From a virus (lineage: Duplodnaviria > Heunggongvirae > Uroviricota > Caudoviricetes), in IMG/VR virus record IMGVR_UViG_3300047546_003009: a DNA stretch of 64,000 nt. One strand, written 5' to 3'. The position numbers and the translations under genes are program-made. The number at the start of each line of letters is the position of its first letter. The stretch's first letter is position 1. The notes beneath the pieces are model-generated. The model was not told where the DNA came from, made no database searches, and saw only the letters and a list, made by a program, of their open reading frames with translations. Shown here in pieces: positions 6,684 through 50,597 of this stretch.

Positions 6684-7736
6684 TCATTTCTCGTTCATCA
6701 AATATGCATTACTAACAGCCTTGAAGTGAATGTTTGGATCGGTCTCACACTTGAAAACAATTCCTTCACGGTTAATCGGTTTTTCTGAAATGTAAGACTT
6801 ACCATCCGCCCATTCAAGAATATAGTCAACATCACCTGTTCCAAGATCCGGATCTTGGAACAGGCCTGTTCCAAGATCCTTACCGATGCAAATCACAGGA
6901 ACGTGCTTGATATCAAGCTGCGTCAAAATTGCACGTCGAACTCCAGGCGCAAAATAACTAGTGCCAGAGAAAACATCAAACGCATAGAATTCAGTGTCAG
7001 CAAGATTGTAAATGTTTCCCTGTACACCAGGACCAACTAGTTCACCCTGAATGGCAACACCTAACAAACCAGCTTGTCTCATCTTTCGTTCAACATCGTT
7101 CTTGATGGCAACCCTCCAGAACGCATTTGTTTCACTGGGCTTGAGGTCAAGATTGCGGCTGCAAACGTGAAACACGCCCTGATAGTCCAAATAGAACGTG
7201 CAACTAGAACCTTCTAATTTCTCAGTAATTTCGAACAAAAGACCTTGATCATACCACTGTTTAATTTCTTTAGAAAGATTCTGAATTCGTTCTTGATCAG
7301 TCTTAGGAATTGCTGTGGGGAATGCACCCTGCACTTCACCCTGAAGTTGAGTAGGAATAGGCATTTCCCATTTCTGAATCGTAAGAATATCAGAAACGTC
7401 CATGCCTTCCAACTCGTCCTCTCGGGCAATTTGTTGTGTGTACGGATGAAGTGGAAGCAGCAGTCCCTGACTAATTTGTCCGCGAAGTTTGACAGTACGA
7501 AGGCGTTCACCCTTAACACCATTGAATTCTTTGGGTTCTCTACCCTTCGTCAGGAACGGGGCAATGTTGTGAGGAATCCACGAGTCGATCTCACAGTAGA
7601 TAGCAAGATCACCAGGATTAAATTCACCCTTCTTAATCACAACCTTCCAACCACCAACAGTGGCAACGTCAATTGCATCTGCACTAGGAATTGCCTGAAT
7701 GCTATCAATCTTCCGAATTGTTGCCATCTTTCTCAT
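6684..7736 (-). CDS. RNA ligase (Rnl2/Rnl5-like nucleotidyltransferase with N-terminal OB-like domain)
   Basis: Nucleotidyltransferase motif I KLEGSS, motif IV GELVGPGVQGN and motif V REGIVFK are present. An N-terminal domain of about 150 aa (MATIRKIDSIQAIP...) resembles the OB domain of DraRnl or NgrRnl-type ligases. Confidence 0.7.
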   Translation of the reverse strand: MRKMATIRKIDSIQAIPSADAIDVATVGGWKVVIKKGEFNPGDLAIYCEIDSWIPHNIAPFLTKGREPKEFNGVKGERLRTVKLRGQISQGLLLPLHPYTQQIAREDELEGMDVSDILTIQKWEMPIPTQLQGEVQGAFPTAIPKTDQERIQNLSKEIKQWYDQGLLFEITEKLEGSSCTFYLDYQGVFHVCSRNLDLKPSETNAFWRVAIKNDVERKMRQAGLLGVAIQGELVGPGVQGNIYNLADTEFYAFDVFSGTSYFAPGVRRAILTQLDIKHVPVICIGKDLGTGLFQDPDLGTGDVDYILEWADGKSYISEKPINREGIVFKCETDPNIHFKAVSNAYLMNEK

Positions 7737-10700
7737 GATAAATCCTTTTAGATAATATCCATAAACTTTTGATAGAGCTTCGCTGTGAGGTTAGGCAGTA
7801 TGATGACTCGCTTGCCACTTTTCAGTTGCTCAATCGCGTGGTAATCTGCTGCAAGTGCTCCAGGACCATACTTACAGTAAATAGCAAACGCTACCTTCTC
7901 TATAAGATCTTTCGCTTCTTTCAACGGCAAATCGGCCTCGTTTCGGGCATCCTTAATAGCCTCGATTAACATGCCATTTTTTATGCTTTCAACAGCTTTC
8001 TCCATCCACGGCACAGGTGCGCAATCAACCACGCGAAGAAACACTTCAGGTTCACGTTTGGCAAGTTCTACCACAACGCGTTTGTAGTCAATTTCTTCAT
8101 TCATCAAAATTTCAATAACACGCTTATAAAGATCCATTTCATTCCCTCTCATAATTTAAAATGATGTTGATATCGCTTACTGCACACCCCAGTAGTTTTT
8201 AATCAGGTCGGCAGTGTTTGGGAGGATAATGCCAGCCAGTGCTTCACCATACTGTACATACTTTTCATGGTTTGCATCTGCAATGTTAGCACAAACTCGA
8301 ACAATATCTTCAGTATATGCTAACAGTTCGCTCTCAGTAAACTGATAATATTCTTCTCGCTTCGTTGCAGGTTTGACTCTACTGTTCAGTACTGCTCGAC
8401 TAATGATTAGTTCTTTGTCCATATCAAATAACCCCGGTATTACTGAAAAATATCATGCAATTTGCTATGGCAAAGACAATGTTGCCCCAAAATAGCACGA
8501 TTCCCCAGGTAGAATCATCGTTTTTCACGTTCAGTGCACCATAAAGGTTCAACACAGCTAGCAAAATATTGGCCACGTTACACCTCGTTTTAGACGATTA
8601 TAACGCTATTGTACCACAATTTGAATTTCTTGGCAACTGATTCTTTCAATAGTTCGATCCGGCCATTTGACATCAACAGTTCTTTTTTGAACTTTGACAA
8701 TTTGACCGTGACTATATTGTTTTTTGCCAACTTTTTTGACAATTGAACCGACAGAGGGTTTTTGTATCATAACGAAACTTTCACTGAAGATGGGCAATCG
8801 TATCTGGGACAGACGTATCCTACTGCTTGCTTACCATTGAGTTTGCAAACTTTGCAGTGGATATCGGTTACATATTCCCATTCGCGAGGAAACCACTTAA
8901 CTTCTGAATGATTGGGATCAATAGAGGGTTCGGTGAATTCGCTTTGAATTATTTCACTAATAACGTGTCGATATTCGGTATTGGCTAGTGCAGTGTATAA
9001 CTCAAGAAGTTTGGTTAGATTTTCTTTCTTCATATTCCAAATCTGTATATGAAACGTTTCCTTGGCCAACGATTAGGTCTGCATACACTTCGCAGTATGT
9101 GCAGCTATGTGTGAACCCCTCACTAAAGATAATAATAAACCCACCAGTTGCTACATAGTGAATTTCTTTTGATGCACCATCTTTCATTGTATCCATAATG
9201 ATTTTGGCAACATCATACCAGTGCTGACAATTATAAAGTTTAACAAGGCCAGCATTGTTGTTGAATACATATCGCGCAACTGCCTCAACCTGGCTTTCTA
9301 TGTAGCTAATTTTCATATTAGTTTCTCATTGCTTTGATAAGCTGCTCATGATCGGCAAACAATCTTTCAAATTTCAGCTGATATAACTGCTGCATGCCGT
9401 GAAGAATTTTGGATAGGTTTTCCATTGACATTTTATCCCGCGAGTCAATAAATTCTGCAATAAGCTTGAGGTCATCGCAGACGCACCAGCATTCCATAAT
9501 ATGCTGTTCCATGTCATAAGCTTTAAACATCTTATCACGCGTATCAGTATCGAGAGAGGTATCCATTAATCTACATCACTTTCTTTATAAACATATTCTG
9601 TTTTTGGTGTATAGGGGAATTGAATGTAAACACGAGAGTCCCTACTAGTAAAATATGTCTTGTACCGCTCACCCTGTTTATCAACAATCCATTCCCAAAA
9701 CACCTTGCCGTCGATATCATATGCACCAGTATCATCTTTGAACACGCGGCCACATCTGTTGTTTTGATAGAGCTTGCCATCCAGTTCACCAACATGGTTC
9801 CACTCCCAATCTTCTCCAGTGAGAGGGGCAATTGGTTCAAACTTTGCAAGCTTTTCAAAAAGATCGATCGTATAATGTGCTGAGGTTCCAGAGTGACCTT
9901 CACCGTGGAAAACATCTAGAAGTTTGATTACGTGATTGCAAATCATTTCCTGCATCTCATCGCCAAACTTGCCATTTTCGTCGACCCAGCCAGCTGCCTT
10001 GAACTCTTTCAGGGCGTGTTTTACATAATTACTAAGATCAGATTCGCTCATATAAGATTCCCTACGTTAATAAAGTCAATTATTTGGTCTGTGTCAAAAT
10101 TATTAATTCTAATATTAGGAACCACATCATCAATCAGCACAGCATGCTCGAACTTAAGAACAGAACAAAAGTTTGTAAAAGCACCAACCTTACCACGGAT
10201 CGATATGAAATCTGTGATACTTTCCCACCGCACACCAGTTAGCTCAGTGTCAACCTGCATCATTGTTTGAGCCGTAGGTGTAGTTTCAATAATACTGCCC
10301 AAAACTCTTTCTAGAGTAGGACGGATATTGTTTGTAAACTCGCGATGATCATCATCGGTCCAAATAGCAAAAGAAAATACACCGAGCTTATCGGTAGGAC
10401 CGATGACTCTTTTAATCTTCTCAACATTAACCAGGAGTCGAGAAGACCAACTATCAATAATAGTTTCTTCGAGGTCGAGAAACACAAATCTCGGTGCATT
10501 ATTCATCACAGCGCTGTTCCTAGAACATTGTTTATGTATTGATCAAGCTCTTTATTGCAATCTTGCCCAAACTTTCGCTTCAGGTAAAGCCGTTGTATAA
10601 TGTTAGGGTCGGCCTCGCTCGTTTCGTACACTGTATAACCACGACGTTCCAACTCTTCAACCATATCATCAGAATCAACGTCATACAAATCAATTTCAGC

Positions 10701-46038: not shown

Positions 46039-46176
46039 TTATTCTTTAGGTATATAGTCGTGTTTAGATGCACCGCACTCGGGGCAATTCACTTCATCTG
46101 GAAGTGACATCCAATCTGACTCTAAAAGAGTGTGGCCACATACAACACAAACGTATAATTTTTCTTGTTCAGACAT
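46039..46176 (-). CDS. rubredoxin-like zinc-ribbon protein (45 aa), translationally coupled to the rubrerythrin-like ORF
   Basis: Translates to MSEQEKLYVCVVCGHTLLESDWMSLPDEVNCPECGASKHDYIPKE. Its ATG overlaps the upstream TGA (ATGTCTGA). It was not in the ORF track because it is under 60 aa. Confidence 0.55.
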   Translation of the reverse strand: MSEQEKLYVCVVCGHTLLESDWMSLPDEVNCPECGASKHDYIPKE

Positions 46177-46696
46177 TTACAGACTCCTTTGCAATAACAT
46201 CCTGCATGACTTTTTGATATGCTTCAGCATGACGTTTTTCAATCTTTGCAAGAGCAGCAAAACGTTTTTCTGCTTTTTCTAAAATCTCAATAAATTCACG
46301 AGCGTGTTCTTTACTTTCGGTAATTTGATTCTCAGCTTCTTTTACTGCTTCAATGTTGCCTTCACATTCAGCAATATCTCTGAACTGCGGATACATTTGT
46401 GTATACTCATGAGTCTCACCATCAATTGCCATCCGAAGGCTTTCAACAACACCTGGTTTTCCAACTAGAAGTTCAAGATGGCTCCAGGCGTGAATGATTT
46501 CTTGATTTGCTGTGTGCTCGAAGTGAGCAGCAACATCTTCGAAACCAGCCTCACGTGCAAGTTTTGCAAAGTAACGATACTTGATATGGGCCATTGATTC
46601 ACCAGCTAAGGCCGCCTCAAGATTTTTCATTGTAACAGACATGATATCTCCTATGGGTTTAAAAATAACTACATGAATATCTATCGCACAACCCAT
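46169..46696 (-). CDS. rubrerythrin-like ferritin-superfamily diiron protein (no fused rubredoxin domain)
   Basis: ExxH pairs (GESMAHIKY, QEIIHAWSH and a third pair GETHEY). The start is likely the internal MSVTMKNLEAAL. Confidence 0.55.
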   Translation of the reverse strand: MGCAIDIHVVIFKPIGDIMSVTMKNLEAALAGESMAHIKYRYFAKLAREAGFEDVAAHFEHTANQEIIHAWSHLELLVGKPGVVESLRMAIDGETHEYTQMYPQFRDIAECEGNIEAVKEAENQITESKEHAREFIEILEKAEKRFAALAKIEKRHAEAYQKVMQDVIAKESVNV

Positions 46697-46832: not shown

Positions 46833-46910
46833 TGGAGCGGGTAAGGAGAGTCGAACTCCGCGATCTTCAGCTTGGAAGGCTGCTGGTGGCCCCTTCACCT
46901 GTTTACCCGC
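46833..46910 (-). tRNA. tRNA-Gly(UCC)-like, irregular (4-nt acceptor-to-D connector)
   Basis: Acceptor GCGGGTA/TACCCGC, anticodon loop CTTCCAA, T-loop TTCGACT, CCA encoded. The connector and stem mismatches may reduce the tRNAscan score. Confidence 0.5.
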
Positions 46911-46914
46911 AAAA

Positions 46915-47030
46915 CTGGATGCGTTTTTGACGGACTGCTGTTCTACCACTAAACTACTCCTGGATAGGAGGCTGGAATCGAACCAACGTTCGCAGTTTGG
47001 ATTGTCGTTTAAGTTGCTGCTAGCATCCAA
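46915..47030 (-). ncRNA. permuted tRNA-like RNA A (YrlA/Y-RNA-like candidate)
   Basis: Minus-sense order: closing strand GGATGC, a 35-nt region, T-arm GTTGG-TTCGATT-CCAGC, hairpin CTCCT-ATCC-AGGAG, D-arm GTT-TAGTGGTAG-AAC, a 17-nt spacer, then closing strand GCATCC. No linear cloverleaf is possible. Confidence 0.5.
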
Positions 47031-47378: not shown

Positions 47379-47894
47379 TCATTTTTGGCAACCATTTTCT
47401 ATCCTTTTCATAACCTCTTCGAACGCAATTGGTTTAAAGTCTGTGTGTTCAACACTTACACAATGATACCAAGGATCATCAAGCTTACGCGAGTGTAAGT
47501 GTCCATGTATGTTTCCTTTAAACCTTCCCTTTGAATCTGGATGTACTGGTACATGACTTAATATGTAGTTGTTCATCATATGGTAACCACGAATGTCTCG
47601 GAAATATTTCGTGTAATCCGAAAGCTTAAAAATATCGTGGTTGCCCTTGATCAAAACCTTATCGCCGTTCAGTCTTTCTAGAGTTACTAGCGAACGACGG
47701 TTAATTACTACATCACCAAGATGATACACCTTATCTTTTGGTCTGACAACGCTGTTCCAGCGTTTAACCATTTCCTCATCCATCTCATTAGGATCATTCC
47801 AGGGTCTAAGTTTTGTACCATTCTCATTAAGGAACTGGCACACTCCCTTGTGACCAAAATGAGTATCAGAAACTAAAAATACATTACTCATCAT
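47379..47894 (-). CDS. calcineurin-like metallophosphoesterase (small, 171 aa)
   Basis: VSDTHFGH, GDVV, GNHD, GHLH motifs. It is embedded in the tRNA array. Confidence 0.6.
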   Translation of the reverse strand: MMSNVFLVSDTHFGHKGVCQFLNENGTKLRPWNDPNEMDEEMVKRWNSVVRPKDKVYHLGDVVINRRSLVTLERLNGDKVLIKGNHDIFKLSDYTKYFRDIRGYHMMNNYILSHVPVHPDSKGRFKGNIHGHLHSRKLDDPWYHCVSVEHTDFKPIAFEEVMKRIENGCQK

Positions 47895-48403: not shown

Positions 48404-48486
48404 TGGTGCGAGAGACGGGACTCGAACCCGTACGAATTAACGGCAGATTTTAAGTCTGCTGCGGCTACCGATTACGCCACTCTCGC
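48404..48486 (-). tRNA. tRNA-Leu(UAA), class II
   Basis: Anticodon stem GCAGA/TCTGC with loop CTTAAAA, long variable arm CGTTAATTCGTACG, T-arm ACGGGTTCGAGTCCCGT, A73, CCA encoded. Confidence 0.8.
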
Positions 48487-49143
48487 TTTTTTACTCACTA
48501 TACTATATTGTATAGTTGCTGTCAACAGTCCAATAATCCATGGAGCAAATTGCAACACCTGCGCATGGACTACTTCGCTTAACTGAAACATCGGTTCTTT
48601 CAGTATCATCTGAACAGCAACAACAAACAAAACAAAACTTCCTACAAAAACTGATTGTGGGTATTTTGCAATAATCTTACTTACTACACCTGCTCCAAAT
48701 AATATTATTGGAACAGAAATAATCAATCCAAAAATTATTAGTGCAAAATTACCGTGCGCGGCCGCAGCAATACCGAGCGCATTATCTATTCCCATTACAG
48801 CATCAGCAACCACTATTGTACCAATTGCTTTCCAAAAGGTATCGGCTGATTTAACCTCTTTGTGTTTATGATCGGTAGCAAGTTTCCAACCTATCCATAA
48901 AAGTGCTAACCCACCAATAAAACGAAGTCCAGGTATCAATAACAAATATGTCAATATAGCAACAGAAACAAACCTTACACCTATTGCACCAACAGTCCCC
49001 CACAAAATTGCTTTTTTGCGCAAATGCTCTGGAAGACGGCTAGCAGCCATACCAATAATAAGTGCGTTGTCTCCTGCTAACACAACATCAATCAGAATGA
49101 TAGCTAAAATGGCCCACAAGGCCTGTAAAGAAAGCAGTTCCAT
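48472..49143 (-). CDS. TerC-family integral membrane protein
   Basis: Two GDNALI / GIDNALG motifs and multiple transmembrane helices. Its 3' end overlaps the 5' end of tRNA-Leu(UAA) by about 15 nt. Confidence 0.65.
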   Translation of the reverse strand: MELLSLQALWAILAIILIDVVLAGDNALIIGMAASRLPEHLRKKAILWGTVGAIGVRFVSVAILTYLLLIPGLRFIGGLALLWIGWKLATDHKHKEVKSADTFWKAIGTIVVADAVMGIDNALGIAAAAHGNFALIIFGLIISVPIILFGAGVVSKIIAKYPQSVFVGSFVLFVVAVQMILKEPMFQLSEVVHAQVLQFAPWIIGLLTATIQYSIVSKKARVA

Positions 49144-49426: not shown

Positions 49427-49502
49427 TGGTGCCGCTTGTTGGTTACGCTCCAACCTCTCGTGCTCTTCAGGCACACGCTTTCACTAGATTAGCTTAAGCG
49501 GC
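49427..49502 (-). tRNA. tRNA-Phe(GAA) with non-canonical T-loop
   Basis: Anticodon loop CTGAAGA. T-arm GTTGG-AGCGTAA-CCAAC lacks the TTC motif. CCA encoded. Confidence 0.5.
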
Positions 49503-49572
49503 ATTAAATTACAGGATCCTTTTTCTCTTTTCCAATAAAAGATTTTTTGTTTGCTGAACGGATCCTAAAACT

Positions 49573-50366: not shown

Positions 50367-50378
50367 AAAAAAACAACA

Positions 50379-50493
50379 GGATAGTTTTTCTTTAGTGCTA
50401 CCGTTACACCAAACCATCCGAAGATGGCTGCGGAGTCGAACCGCTCCTTTCGTTTAACAGACGATTAAGAATTTAATTTTGCTGTGACTATCC
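50379..50493 (-). ncRNA. permuted tRNA-like RNA B (YrlA/Y-RNA-like candidate)
   Basis: Minus-sense order: closing strand GGATAGT, a 40-nt region with hairpin TCGT-CTGTTAA-ACGA, T-arm GCGG-TTCGACT-CCGC, hairpin AGCCATC-UUCG-GATGGTT, D-arm GTG-TAACGGTAG-CAC, a 9-nt spacer, then closing strand ACTATCC. It has the same architecture as element A. Confidence 0.5.
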
Positions 50494-50503
50494 TAAAACT
50501 TGA

Positions 50504-50590
50504 CGGGGAATACAGGAGTCGAACCTGTAAAAATTATTTGCTGTACACATTCACCGCTGAATGCAATGCACACCATGTGCGGTATTCCCC
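50504..50590 (-). ncRNA. atypical tRNA-like gene (87 nt, no encoded CCA, no recognisable anticodon arm)
   Basis: Perfect acceptor GGGGAAT/ATTCCCC (G73) and T-arm ACAGGTTCGACTCCTGT. The 55-nt interior folds into three hairpins (GCACA-TGG-TGTGC, CATTCA-GCGG-TGAATG, TGTA...TACA) instead of D and anticodon arms. The 3' end is followed by UCA rather than CCA. Confidence 0.4.
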
Positions 50591-50597
50591 AAAAAAC

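Follow-up and report, generated by a model that had tools for sequence, protein, structure and literature searches.

Permuted tRNA-like elements in a phage tRNA array, probable members of a Y-RNA-like family linked to a predicted Ro60-fold gene

What are two tRNA-like sequences doing in a phage tRNA array when their arms come in the wrong order for a tRNA? The question is raised by a 64,000-nucleotide stretch of DNA from a Caudoviricetes virus (the window), for which the original prediction, made from the letters alone, proposed two paralogous RNAs resembling the bacterial YrlA Y RNAs, with the anticodon stem opened and the acceptor stem closed. We conclude that these elements, here called A and B, are probably non-coding RNAs of a phage-encoded Y-RNA-like family that is absent from Rfam. 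Since a large family of small RNAs adjoins a Ro60-like gene in many phages, they are most likely the phage's own 'Y RNAs'.

Anatomy and conservation of elements A and B

The minus-strand anatomy of both elements confirms the predicted T-before-D order, the tetraloops AUCC and UUCG and the two terminal stems. Element A is laid out as follows:

46916–47029, minus strand: element A, a permuted tRNA-like, Y-like RNA of 114 nt
47029–47023, minus strand: 5′ strand of the terminal stem, UGGAUGC, 7 nt
47022–47014, minus strand: conserved single-stranded motif, UAGCAGCAA
46996–46992, minus strand: 5′ strand of the anticodon-stem analogue, ACUGC, followed by the loop GAAC
46987–46971, minus strand: T arm, GUUGG-UUCGAUU-CCAGC
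46970–46957, minus strand: closed acceptor hairpin, CUCCU-AUCC-AGGAG, 5 bp
46954–46940, minus strand: D arm, GUUU-AGUGGUA-GAAC, preceded by U8 A9
46938–46934, minus strand: GCAGU, partner strand of ACUGC
46922–46916, minus strand: 3′ strand of the terminal stem, GCAUCCA; GUUUU comes next
47014–47029, minus strand: 5′ half of the handle, the terminal-stem strand plus UAGCAGCAA, delimited from the alignment and sequence logos
46916–46933, minus strand: 3′ half of the handle, the A-rich CCGUCAAAAAC and then the stem strand GCAUCCA

Element B reads, from 5′ to 3′:

50378–50494, minus strand: element B, a permuted tRNA-like, Y-like RNA of 117 nt
Minus strand: terminal stem, 5′ strand AGGAUAGU and 3′ strand ACUAUCCU
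Minus strand: motif after the 5′ stem strand, CACAGCAA
50450–50464, minus strand: anticodon-arm-like hairpin, UCGU-CUGUUAA-ACGA, then AAGGA, before the T arm
Minus strand: T arm, GCGG-UUCGACU-CCGC
Minus strand: closed acceptor hairpin, GCCAUC-UUCG-GAUGGU, then UU
Minus strand: D arm, GGUGU-AACGGUA-GCACU
Minus strand: strand between the D arm and the 3′ stem strand, AAAGAAAA

Closing the acceptor and placing the chain ends on the anticodon side makes this a circular permutation of the tRNA fold. The claim of an opened anticodon stem fits A, which has no anticodon loop and cannot form one from its termini. In B, by contrast, a hairpin resembling an anticodon arm is retained, with CUGUUAA as its 7-nt loop, and the chain ends fall between this hairpin and the D arm. 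Common to both elements is the handle, towards which the anticodon-stem analogue of A extends. It comprises a 7-bp stem of the 5′ and 3′ ends, the consensus motif N-U-W-C-M-G-C-A-A at RNA positions 8–16 (single-stranded U-W-C-M-G-C-A-A at 9–16), from which UAGCAGCAA of A departs, and on the 3′ side an A-rich strand and the 3′ end CC(U)/GUU. Pairing of GC in the motif with GC/GU of the 3′ strand was dropped, being seen only in a CCGCAA subgroup. A UUCUU/AAGAA helix prolonging the anticodon stem of B is likewise unsupported by the B-type relatives and was discarded, as these pass directly from the D arm into the A-rich strand.

The expectation that no linear tRNA would be called on either element was met. 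ARAGORN finds 29 tRNAs in the window, none of which overlaps 46916–47029 or 50378–50494; the Rfam tRNA model (RF00005) matches neither element at the gathering threshold or at E ≤ 10; and a gathering-threshold search of the window with Rfam yielded tRNAs only, with no YrlA.

Judged from sequence comparison, the pattern of A and B exceeds chance, and its support is comparative, not thermodynamic. Folding energies sustain the prediction for B (MFE z-score of −3.0) but not for A, whose fold is no more stable than shuffled sequence (z-score of only −1.08). A covariance model (R1) was built from A and two relatives, excluding B because a four-way MAFFT alignment of these sequences misaligned the 5′ half of B. 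Although trained without B, R1 matches it at 34.1 bits (E = 3.7e-5), which bears out the earlier argument that the same architecture occurring twice is not accidental. Element A scores 132.8 bits with R1 and 102.6 bits with a second model, R2, values that are qualified by its being a training member of both.

R1 recovered 45 full-length homologues (37 distinct) with strong covariation. Among these hits 96.7% of base-pair cells are paired, compared with 65% in shuffles and 33–44% when partners are slid; double changes occur in 23 of 25 pairs, and every helix contains compensatory pairs. The alignments behind these counts are fitted to the model structure. When MAFFT and RNAalifold were applied without reference to the model, the same terminal stem, acceptor hairpin and T and D arms emerged, and 19 of 22 pairs were compensatory. 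The structure is conserved, and the covariation of terminal stem, T arm and D arm on which the original prediction was staked is present in homologous phages, in the acceptor hairpin too. Proteins of the homologous loci are 58–78% identical, so the homologues are not near-identical copies stemming from a single recent event. U8 and A14 are each found in 31 of 32 members (column-based count), in which the T loop reads UUCRANY, the D loop holds GG and the Levitt pair covaries (G15:C48 twelve times, A15:U48 eight times).

Further family members and the Ro60-like gene in the window

A and B are related, as proposed, but they are not a lone pair: the window contains at least five such elements, and probably six, counting A and B, and they share a strand with a Ro60-like gene:

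42826–44250, minus strand: Ro60-like protein gene, 474 aa, with Pfam DUF2828 and DUF7788 and a weak VWA_2 match
44263–44318, minus strand: mini of 56 nt, 13 nt upstream of the Ro60-like gene start; handle AGGUUAA-G-UUCCGCAA ... UUUAACCU; cargo hairpin CAGA-CUGAAAA-UCUG with a 7-nt anticodon-loop-like loop
44332–44519, minus strand: tentative long member of 188 nt with a multi-hairpin interior, a perfect 7-bp terminal stem UGGGUGG/CCACCCA and canonical spacing to UUCAGCAA
49513–49566, minus strand: mini of 54 nt within the tRNA array, AGGAUCC-G-UUCAGCAA ... AAAAA-GGAUCCU
50505–50590, minus strand: tRNA-order member immediately upstream of B; its 7-bp acceptor stem GGGGAAU/AUUCCCC is open, its D arm is reduced and a T arm is present; internal handle GCAUUCA-GCGG-UGAAUGU-G-UACAGCAAA, closed by the GCGG loop

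The tRNA-order member is not among the ARAGORN calls, and Rfam tRNA-Sec gives only 26.9 bits at 50504–50591. Analogous forms occur at loci L004, L046, L086 and L082 (Aeromonas phage Aeh1), where they have NCCA ends and full anticodon arms and keep the handle as an internal arm. The family accounts for some oddly long or 'pseudo' tRNA annotations in phages, for example the 122-nt 'tRNA-Val' of Aeh1. The 188-nt element is also present as the same element in locus L001, and long variants of 143–258 nt recur among related loci; its membership remains tentative, its interior structure lacking comparative support. Minis equivalent to 44263–44318 stand directly 5′ of the gene in most related loci. 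When the 8-kb tRNA region was compared by megablast with 50,697 phage records, the only matches were scattered tRNAs, which leaves the region without a close sequenced relative.

The protein encoded at 42826–44250 matches DUF7788 (E = 2.9e-48) and DUF2828 (E = 1.7e-24). Pfam TROVE is not matched, phmmer and profile searches against PDB sequences found no Ro60, and nothing functional was found in the literature on DUF2828, PF11443 or DUF7788. In an AlphaFold model computed from a 38-sequence alignment (the single-sequence model was unusable, with a pLDDT of 41), two methods recognise the Ro60 fold, a helical-repeat ring followed by a vWA domain, and the best structural match is phiRo60 of Thermus phage phiLo. 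Model quality is moderate (pLDDT 75; TM 0.46–0.55). The designation Ro60-like is supported by predicted structure only, and the protein is the presumed partner of A and B, without binding data. With this qualification, the gene corresponds to the Ro60-like candidate that had been placed 2.7 kb away: A is located 2,666 nt upstream of it on the same strand. B lies on that strand at a distance of 6.1 kb, and tRNAs and four protein genes separate both elements from the gene. DUF2828 homologues are found in 711 sequenced phage genomes, among them Felix O1-like coliphages, Salmonella phages, KVP40-like vibriophages, Listeria P100-like, Staphylococcus and Campylobacter phages and mycobacteriophages. 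The homologue in Felixounavirus EC6 shares 39% identity with the window protein.

Linkage in other phages and competing explanations

In other phages the RNA family and the gene are linked on the same strand. All 61 hits of R2 at E ≤ 1e-3 are on the gene strand, and a handle detector run over 1.3 Mb found 307 elements on that strand versus 21 on the opposite one. These counts are lower bounds, as the strict regular expression misses A (UAGCAGCAA) and the Lewan and Listeria variants (UAACAGCAA). Contigs from metagenome-assembled genomes have the same strand bias (44 versus 11). The elements of the relatives are situated within 20–500 nt of the gene, in tandem arrays of two to seven whose last member ends about 3–20 nt before the gene start. 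The family adjoins the homologous gene in Felixounavirus EC6, Mycobacterium phage Lewan (where the gene is annotated 'Ro-like RNA binding protein'), Aeromonas phage Aeh1, Synechococcus phage BUCT-ZZ01 and Listeria phage LP-124; same-strand adjacent arrays span phages of Gram-negative and Gram-positive bacteria, actinobacteria and cyanobacteria. EC6 carries four handle-bearing elements (L081 7718–7778, 7879–7938, 8274–8341 and 8361–8486). The one at 8361–8486 is a B-type tRNA mimic and, with that of Lewan (L085 9534–9653), a close analogue of B.

Each member combines two modules, the constant handle and a cargo that varies; the cargo of A and B is a tRNA mimic with its acceptor closed by a tetraloop and its chain ends on the anticodon side. 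As a mechanism we propose that the elements may be transcribed along with the tRNA array and then excised from the transcript, and that the handle would be bound by the Ro60-like ring protein from 42826–44250. The tRNA-like module could then guide the RNP to an effector able to recognise the elbow or the body of a tRNA; candidates are an exoribonuclease, an enzyme of tRNA repair or modification and a host tRNA-targeting nuclease. Alternatively, the RNAs might gate access to the ring, like Y RNAs on Ro60. That the RNAs are expressed and processed, that the protein binds them and which effector they reach are all inferences. Binding is argued from linkage only, because the handle lacks a known Ro60-binding motif: GNCGAA of YrlA, CGAA of Yrl and GGUCCGA of metazoan Y RNAs all differ from it. 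Even so, a partner-RNA family with a defined handle provides the uncharacterised DUF2828 gene with a concrete, mutable putative binding site.

The absence of such a motif also fits the view that these structured tRNA-like RNAs work without the Ro60-like protein, the adjacency of the gene reflecting co-regulation only. They might then act as decoys or sponges for host tRNA-targeting nucleases or tRNA-binding enzymes, or as processing or stability elements of the tRNA-array transcript. The location of A and B in the tRNA array, with tRNA-like spacing and GUU(G)UUUU linkers, agrees with this, as does the mimicry of tRNA parts by the cargos (whole bodies in A and B, anticodon-like CUNNNAA loops in 60 of 113 minis). 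We nevertheless regard protein-independent action as unlikely, since a handle that stays constant across otherwise unrelated cargos indicates one common binding partner, and strict same-strand adjacent arrays beside one gene family in diverse phages are the pattern of Ro60 and its Y RNAs. A role as cis-acting leaders that control translation or transcription of the Ro60-like gene is suggested by the last element lying 3–20 nt before the start codon in most loci, including the mini at 44263–44318, but is very unlikely in view of the distances of A and B with their intervening genes, of the elements downstream of the gene in EC6, Lewan and BUCT-ZZ01, and of the multiple tandem copies with differing cargos, which fit poorly.

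Two explanations start from tRNA genes themselves. As in the permuted tRNA genes of Cyanidioschyzon merolae and in permuted tmRNA genes, A and B put the 3′ half of a tRNA ahead of the 5′ half, with a short loop joining the acceptor strands, and the tRNA-order relatives have NCCA ends and full anticodon arms. Maturation via a circular intermediate into decoding tRNAs is barely tenable, however. Processing of permuted genes restores an ordinary tRNA, or yields a tmRNA in two pieces, and leaves the CCA end free, whereas the acceptors of A and B are closed hairpins of only 5–6 bp without an encoded CCA and A cannot form an anticodon loop; moreover, the handle, the most conserved part, would be discarded, and the tRNA-order relatives retain it. 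No splicing-endonuclease pathway of the C. merolae permuted-tRNA kind is known in bacteria or phages. That the elements are functionless, either remnants of decayed tRNAs or debris from recombination between tRNA genes in tandem, deserves next to no credence. Ordinary tRNA–tRNA junctions do put a T arm before a D arm, reaching 18–20 bits with the Rfam YrlA model, and in L086 the covariance-model match spans two tandem units. Yet this origin is largely refuted by covariation, over dozens of divergent phages, in the terminal stem, the acceptor hairpin and both the T and the D arm. Family members also end at defined, conserved positions and share a conserved motif foreign to tRNA, and no half-tRNAs flank A or B.

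Relation to YrlA, phage and Dictyostelium RNAs

YrlA RNAs are bacterial tRNA-mimic Y RNAs bound by Rsr/Ro60; their two termini pair into a stem that carries, in this order, the T arm, the acceptor as a closed hairpin and the D arm (Chen et al. 2014, PMC4201824; bioRxiv 10.1101/312249). A and B share the order (V)–T arm–closed acceptor–D arm, where V is an optional hairpin before the T arm, and the phage family has the conserved tRNA tertiary nucleotides, a covarying 15:48 pair, a location on the strand of a nearby gene that is Ro60-like by predicted fold, and more than one paralogue per genome. The YrlA model (RF02553) aligns to the T–acceptor–D core of A (24.4 bits at 46940–46988, model positions 30–81 only) and over its full length to two B-type relatives, at a sub-threshold but significant 39.4 and 37.5 bits (E = 3e-5 and 1e-4). 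In contrast to genuine YrlA, A falls short of the gathering cut-off of 69 and B gives no match at E ≤ 10; in the Rfam alignment the outer YrlA helix falls on AU-rich flanks, and only the tRNA-like core is truly matched. The GNCGAAN0-1G motif, the proposed Rsr contact near the 5′ end, is absent from the phage elements (A begins UGGAUGC-UAGCAGCAA and B AGGAUAGU-CACAGCAA, without GNCGAA), whose protein-proximal module is instead the sharply conserved handle (stem plus UWCMGCAA, A-rich strand, CC(U)/GUU). The partner belongs to DUF2828/DUF7788 and not to TROVE, and the arrays hold up to seven members with non-tRNA cargos and both permuted and tRNA-order forms. Against the YrlA yardstick of about 4 kb and the same strand from a Ro60 orthologue, A lies at 2.67 kb and B at 6.1 kb from a gene that is Ro60-like by fold only. 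The predicted likeness thus stands for architecture, core nucleotides and same-strand linkage to a gene with a predicted Ro60 fold, and fails on the Rfam cut-off and the GNCGAA motif: the evidence supports calling A and B YrlA-like, and not YrlA. Permuted and tRNA-order forms side by side offer material for the published origin of tRNA-mimic Y RNAs from tandem tRNA transcripts.

A phage precedent exists in Thermus phage phiLo, whose phiRo60 binds the Y-like RNAs Yrl1 and Yrl2 (PMC12135203; PDB 9KOP, 9L5Y). There, too, a phage Ro60-fold protein, the one that best matches the window protein, has two Y-like RNAs beside its gene, in which a 5′–3′ stem flanks an internal loop with a short conserved motif. 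These RNAs, however, carry CGAA and are not tRNA mimics (PMC12135203), and phiRo60 is only 16–18% identical to the window protein in structural alignments. In Felixounavirus Bas63 the Ro60-like gp130 is reported to counter the Ppl defence, and the authors of that report surmised that Y RNAs are among the neighbouring 'tRNAs', without identifying an RNA (PhageMaP preprint, PMC11482910). The gene likewise sits beside a tRNA array; the Felixounavirus RNA elements described here are those of EC6. Inferred through the EC6 homologue, gp130 is probably the counterpart of the window protein in the same gene family, so that one probable DUF2828 member has a reported anti-defence effect.

A further resemblance, to the Class I RNAs of Dictyostelia (RF01414), is confined to the handle and the minis and does not extend to the tRNA-like cargo that A and B carry. 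Class I RNAs have a short 5′–3′ stem, (U)UACAGCAA at positions 9–16, a run rich in A ahead of the 3′ stem strand and C-UG(U) at the 3′ end, and are about 55–60 nt long with 30–40% GC, a variable middle and few long variants (PMC7919456, PMC5054030). Phage handles meet this layout with a 5′–3′ stem, (CC)UUACAGCAA beside the 5′ strand and a 3′ C-UGU; the published Class I search pattern is GTTGRCCTTACAGCAA...GTCAACTG. Class I RNAs differ in being eukaryotic: reports of them are limited to Dictyostelia, where they have a DUSE promoter of their own and the RRM protein Rnp1A as partner.

A more general reading, which we consider rather doubtful, would make all of these one handle-and-cargo RNP system, in which a DUF2828 ring binds the constant handle displaying interchangeable tRNA-derived cargos. 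The cargos would be permuted tRNA bodies (A, B), tRNA-order forms with the handle between the D and anticodon arms, and anticodon stem-loop mimics; they could be baits or decoys for host tRNA-targeting defence nucleases, or guides for tRNA repair. On the same doubtful reading, Dictyostelium Class I RNAs, which bear the same handle, would partner a Ro60-like/DUF2828 protein in the manner of Y RNAs, or else derive from a system of this type in phages or bacteria. If the resemblance is true, an RNA class described as unique to social amoebae gains relatives and a candidate protein partner. RF01414 does not match A or B, and all phage scores remain under its cut-off of 41.5 bits, with marginal individual E-values (best 0.0098). 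It matches the window mini over its full length (49512–49565) at 29.6 bits and minis of EC6 at 19.7 and 16.9 bits. A covariance model built from D. discoideum only (R3) gave 31 hits at E ≤ 10 on the phage loci, mostly to minis, and 30 of these are on the gene strand.

Anatomy and covariation of elements A and B

From the sequence alone, two permuted, YrlA-like RNAs had been proposed in the tRNA array, with a candidate Ro60-like gene 2.7 kb away. Reading the minus strand of both intervals confirmed the proposed anatomy.

47029->46916, minus strand: element A, 114 nt
50494->50378, minus strand: element B, 117 nt

In A, a terminal stem (UGGAUGC/GCAUCCA) is followed by a single-stranded 5' stretch that starts UAGCAGCAA, and the anticodon-stem analogue ACUGC pairs with GCAGU on the 3' side. 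A four-nucleotide 'variable loop' (GAAC, its last nucleotide being C48), the T arm GUUGG-UUCGAUU-CCAGC, the closed hairpin CUCCU-AUCC-AGGAG, U8 and A9, the D arm GUUU-AGUGGUA-GAAC and an A-rich strand complete the chain. Element B runs from an 8-bp terminal stem through CACAGCAA, the hairpin UCGU-CUGUUAA-ACGA and AAGGA to a 4-bp T arm, the closed hairpin GCCAUC-UUCG-GAUGGU, the D arm and AAAGAAAA. Thermodynamics is weak evidence for these structures (MFE z-scores of -1.08 for A and -3.0 for B).

As anticipated, no linear tRNA occupies either interval: none of the 29 tRNAs called by ARAGORN in the window overlaps A or B, and the Rfam tRNA model gave no match to them at any threshold tried. The only Rfam family touching A or B is YrlA, at 24.4 bits (cut-off 69), aligning model positions 30-81 with the T-acceptor-D core of A (46940-46988). 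Because ordinary tRNA-tRNA junctions of the array also score 18-20 bits, this match on A alone proves little.

Comparative evidence came from 80 related viral contigs gathered by protein (57-99% identity). BLAST with A identified homologues in L002 and L065; in the former the entire acceptor hairpin, and in the latter the terminal stem, is swapped for different sequence with pairing kept. R1, a covariance model of A and these two homologues that leaves B out, returned 45 full-length matches at E<1e-4. Every one shares the strand of the protein gene, and in many cases the match ends 20-140 nt upstream of this gene; R1 also recovered B at 34.1 bits (E=3.7e-5). Among 37 distinct R1 sequences, standard pairs fill 96.7% of pair cells (65% in shuffles, 33-44% with slid partners); both sides changed in 23 of 25 pairs, with compensatory pairs in each of the five helices. 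This alignment was fitted to the model, and the test was therefore repeated on 32 members with plain MAFFT and RNAalifold, which recovered the terminal stem, T arm, acceptor hairpin and D arm de novo, 19 of 22 pairs being compensatory. The covariation of terminal stem, T arm and D arm that homologous phages should display is thus present. The tRNA core is likewise kept in these 32 members: U8 and A14 each occur in 31, the D loop carries GG, the T loop reads UUCRANY and the 15:48 Levitt pair covaries (G:C in 12, A:U in 8), as has been reported for YrlA (PMC4201824). A second-round model (R2) yielded 61 matches (E<=1e-3), once more without exception on the gene strand, and extended the family to sequenced phages, namely Mycobacterium phage Lewan, Felixounavirus EC6, Synechococcus phage BUCT-ZZ01 and Aeromonas phage Aeh1; the Lewan match lies just downstream of a 'Ro-like RNA binding protein'.

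A constant-handle family linked to one gene family

A, B and all other members of their family share a constant module, the handle, and no Rfam family covers the handle family. The two ends pair as a 7-bp stem that usually reads 5' AGG.../...CCU 3'; one spacer nucleotide precedes U-W-C-M-G-C-A-A at positions 9-16, and an A-rich strand lies immediately 5' of the 3' stem strand. GUU follows the stem to give CUGU in 172 of 248 distinct elements, and UUUU stands upstream in 115 of them. Across 1.3 Mb of phage loci, a handle detector found 307 elements on the gene strand versus 21 on the opposite one. Their lengths fall into three groups (52-68, 84-131 and 143-258 nt), and they stand in tandem, two to seven together, immediately upstream of the gene. 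The same strand bias holds in MAG contigs (44 versus 11).

In the shortest members, the minis of about 55 nt, the variable interior or cargo is a small hairpin. Across loci L001-L086, a 7-nt loop occurs in 60 of 113 distinct minis versus 5% in shuffles, and its consensus, C-U-N-N-N-A-A, is an anticodon-loop signature. B-type mimics carry such a hairpin between motif and T arm, and therefore mimic a complete cloverleaf, the two chain ends lying between D arm and anticodon arm. A-type members are without it, their anticodon-stem analogue extending toward the handle, and some others retain T arm and acceptor hairpin with the D arm replaced. The window holds further members:

44263-44318, minus strand: mini with loop CUGAAAA, 13 nt before the start of the Ro60-like gene
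49513-49566, minus strand: mini folding with a 5-nt loop
44332-44519, minus strand: tentative long member, 188 nt, with a perfect 7-bp terminal stem, canonical spacing to UUCAGCAA and several internal hairpins; identical in L001

In EC6, four elements with the handle lie downstream of the gene, and one of the four is a B-type tRNA mimic. In Lewan (L085 9473-9731), a mini, a tRNA-like element and a second mini with motif (U)AACAGCAA or UACAGCAA lie directly downstream of the Ro-like gene; all three are unannotated, and Rfam YrlA scores only 21 bits there. Listeria phage LP-124 (L084 6212-6476) has three handle elements with motif UAACAGCAAU or ACACAGCAAA just upstream of its DUF2828 gene, with RtcB-like and RNA ligase genes 1.3-4 kb downstream, an arrangement that recalls the Rsr-YrlA-RtcB operon. 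Distant DUF2828 homologues (about 30% identity) also occur on large Akkermansia MAG contigs (L115-L132); the strict handle motif is mostly missing from these, with one plus-strand detector match each in L119, L122 and L127, and they may have a diverged RNA or none.

Permutation and resemblance to known RNAs

The handle and its motif also occur inside molecules of normal tRNA order, in BUCT-ZZ01, Aeh1, L004 and L046. Their acceptor stem is open, 7 bp long and carries NCCA; between a D arm and a T arm sits the handle, capped by a tetra- or pentaloop and in some cases followed by an anticodon-like arm.

L086 9585-9700 and 9714-9830: BUCT-ZZ01 units in tandem with identical handles, downstream of the DUF2828 gene
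L082 10193-10314 (NC_005260 96384-96505): Aeh1 member, annotated as a 122-nt 'tRNA-Val (CAC)'
50505-50590, minus strand: 86-nt member of the window, directly upstream of B

The Aeh1 member carries handle and ACCGCAA motif on the anticodon side, and a second unit lies just upstream. In the window member, the acceptor stem is open, the D arm reduced and the T arm present, and a GCGG loop closes the internal handle; ARAGORN makes no call there and Rfam tRNA-Sec reaches only 26.9 bits. Permuted and tRNA-order forms thus stand side by side in the window, and A and B are true circular permutations of an existing form. In BUCT-ZZ01, a permuted covariance-model match spans the junction of the two tandem units, which looks like the kind of intermediate expected if YrlA-type RNAs arose from dimeric tRNA transcripts, as has been proposed (10.1101/312249, discussion). 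This locus also has a permuted tmRNA match (L086 3783-4079; Rfam RF04321, 111.9 bits).

Three features define YrlA RNAs: GNCGAAN0-1G close to the 5' end, a V/T/AS/D tRNA-like module and a same-strand position within about 4 kb of Ro60. They have been reported from 254 bacteria and 22 phages whose genomes have TROVE-annotated proteins (PMC4201824). A and B share the tRNA-like module and lie on the strand of the neighbouring gene, A within that distance (2.67 kb) and B beyond it (6.1 kb), and the gene is Ro60-like by predicted fold only. They lack the motif and remain below the Rfam cut-off; when a relative scoring 39 bits is aligned to the Rfam model, the true match is confined to the tRNA-like core. 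We therefore file A and B with the Y RNA/YrlA kind as a variant with its own handle motif.

The handle has a second possible relative. Class I RNAs, reported in Dictyostelia only, are AT-rich, about 60 nt long, and have a short 5'-3' stem, an 11-nt motif beside the 5' stem strand and a 3' CUGU (PMC7919456); the published search pattern is GTTGRCCTTACAGCAA...GTCAACTG. In D. discoideum sequences, UUACAGCAA occupies positions 9-16, the 3' stem strand is preceded by an A-rich tract and the end is C-UG; the phage handle is laid out likewise, with its terminal stem, UUACAGCAA at 9-16, an A-rich tract and CUG(U) at the 3' end. Rfam RF01414 matches a window mini (49512-49565) at full length with 29.6 bits (cut-off 41.5; the Class I authors nominated candidates from 25 bits, PMC7919456), and gives 17-30 bits there, at L081 7719-7779 and 7880-7939, at L048 9924-9980 and elsewhere. 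R3, a covariance model whose training set was 25 D. discoideum sequences and nothing else, found 31 matches in the phage loci at E<=10; 30 are on the gene strand, and most coincide with minis at a one-nucleotide offset at each end. Taken singly, these matches score marginally (23.5 bits at best, E about 0.01). The resemblance is a lead, not a finding.

The Ro60-like gene and the proposed partnership

42826-44250, minus strand: Ro60-like ORF, 474 aa, 2,666 nt downstream of A

Pfam assigns DUF7788 (2.9e-48), DUF2828 (1.7e-24) and, weakly, VWA_2 to this protein, with no TROVE match, and no solved structure matches it at the sequence level. Its AlphaFold model (38-sequence alignment, pLDDT 75) aligns over its own full length with Ro60 proteins, and Foldseek retrieves the Ro60 of Thermus phage phiLo (9kop; E=1.2e-7, TM 0.55) and D. 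radiodurans Rsr (2nvo; E=3.3e-6). The candidate gene of the original prediction is therefore Ro60-like at the level of the predicted fold. By tblastn, 711 phage records carry a homologue. In phiLo, a phage Ro60 and two neighbouring Y-like RNAs have been demonstrated biochemically; these RNAs have a CGAA motif and, unlike ours, are not tRNA mimics as described (PMC12135203). The Ro60-like gp130 of Felixounavirus Bas63 was found to counter Ppl defence, and the authors of that work suggested, as speculation only, that Y RNAs might be among the adjacent 'tRNAs' (PMC11482910).

The data establish that the structure is conserved and covaries, that the RNAs form a multi-copy family around a constant handle and that this family is strictly linked to one gene family, whose product has a predicted Ro60 fold. 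We have little doubt that both A and B function as structured RNAs of the handle family. We infer that they would be excised from the tRNA-array transcript, that the handle may bind the Ro60-like ring and that the tRNA-like cargo may recruit or distract a tRNA-recognising factor, this last step by analogy with Ro60/Y RNA/PNPase complexes and with the gp130 counter-defence phenotype. The whole statement, handle-family RNAs in partnership with the Ro60-like protein, we consider probable. Its main rival takes the same RNAs for tRNA-like decoys or processing elements acting without that protein, which we think unlikely. That they are permuted tRNAs serving in decoding, debris or cis-leaders is in each case very improbable.

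Elsewhere the window resembles a T4-like myovirus, with genes for a family B polymerase, clamp loader, UvsX-like RecA, DnaB-like helicase, ribonucleotide reductase, PstS-like protein and an RNA ligase (6684-7736). Four protein genes lie within the tRNA array, all on the minus strand (44526-45092, 46169-46696, 47379-47894 and 48472-49143); their products are an HNH endonuclease, a protein like rubrerythrin, one with a weak metallophosphoesterase match, and a membrane protein of the TerC family. Adjoining A, an odd tRNA-like gene (46836-46910, minus strand) has an acceptor stem, T arm and encoded CCA with an aberrant D region; it scores at the Rfam tRNA cut-off (29.7 bits), has neither an ARAGORN call nor the handle motif, and its counterpart is kept beside the A homologue in L002. 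Two minus-strand tRNAs are also unusual: a tRNA-Phe(GAA) at 49430-49502 with a non-canonical T loop (AGCGUAA), scoring 45 bits with Rfam and missed by ARAGORN, and a tRNA-Ile with anticodon UAU at 45117-45211, which at 95 nt is unusually long for that isoacceptor.
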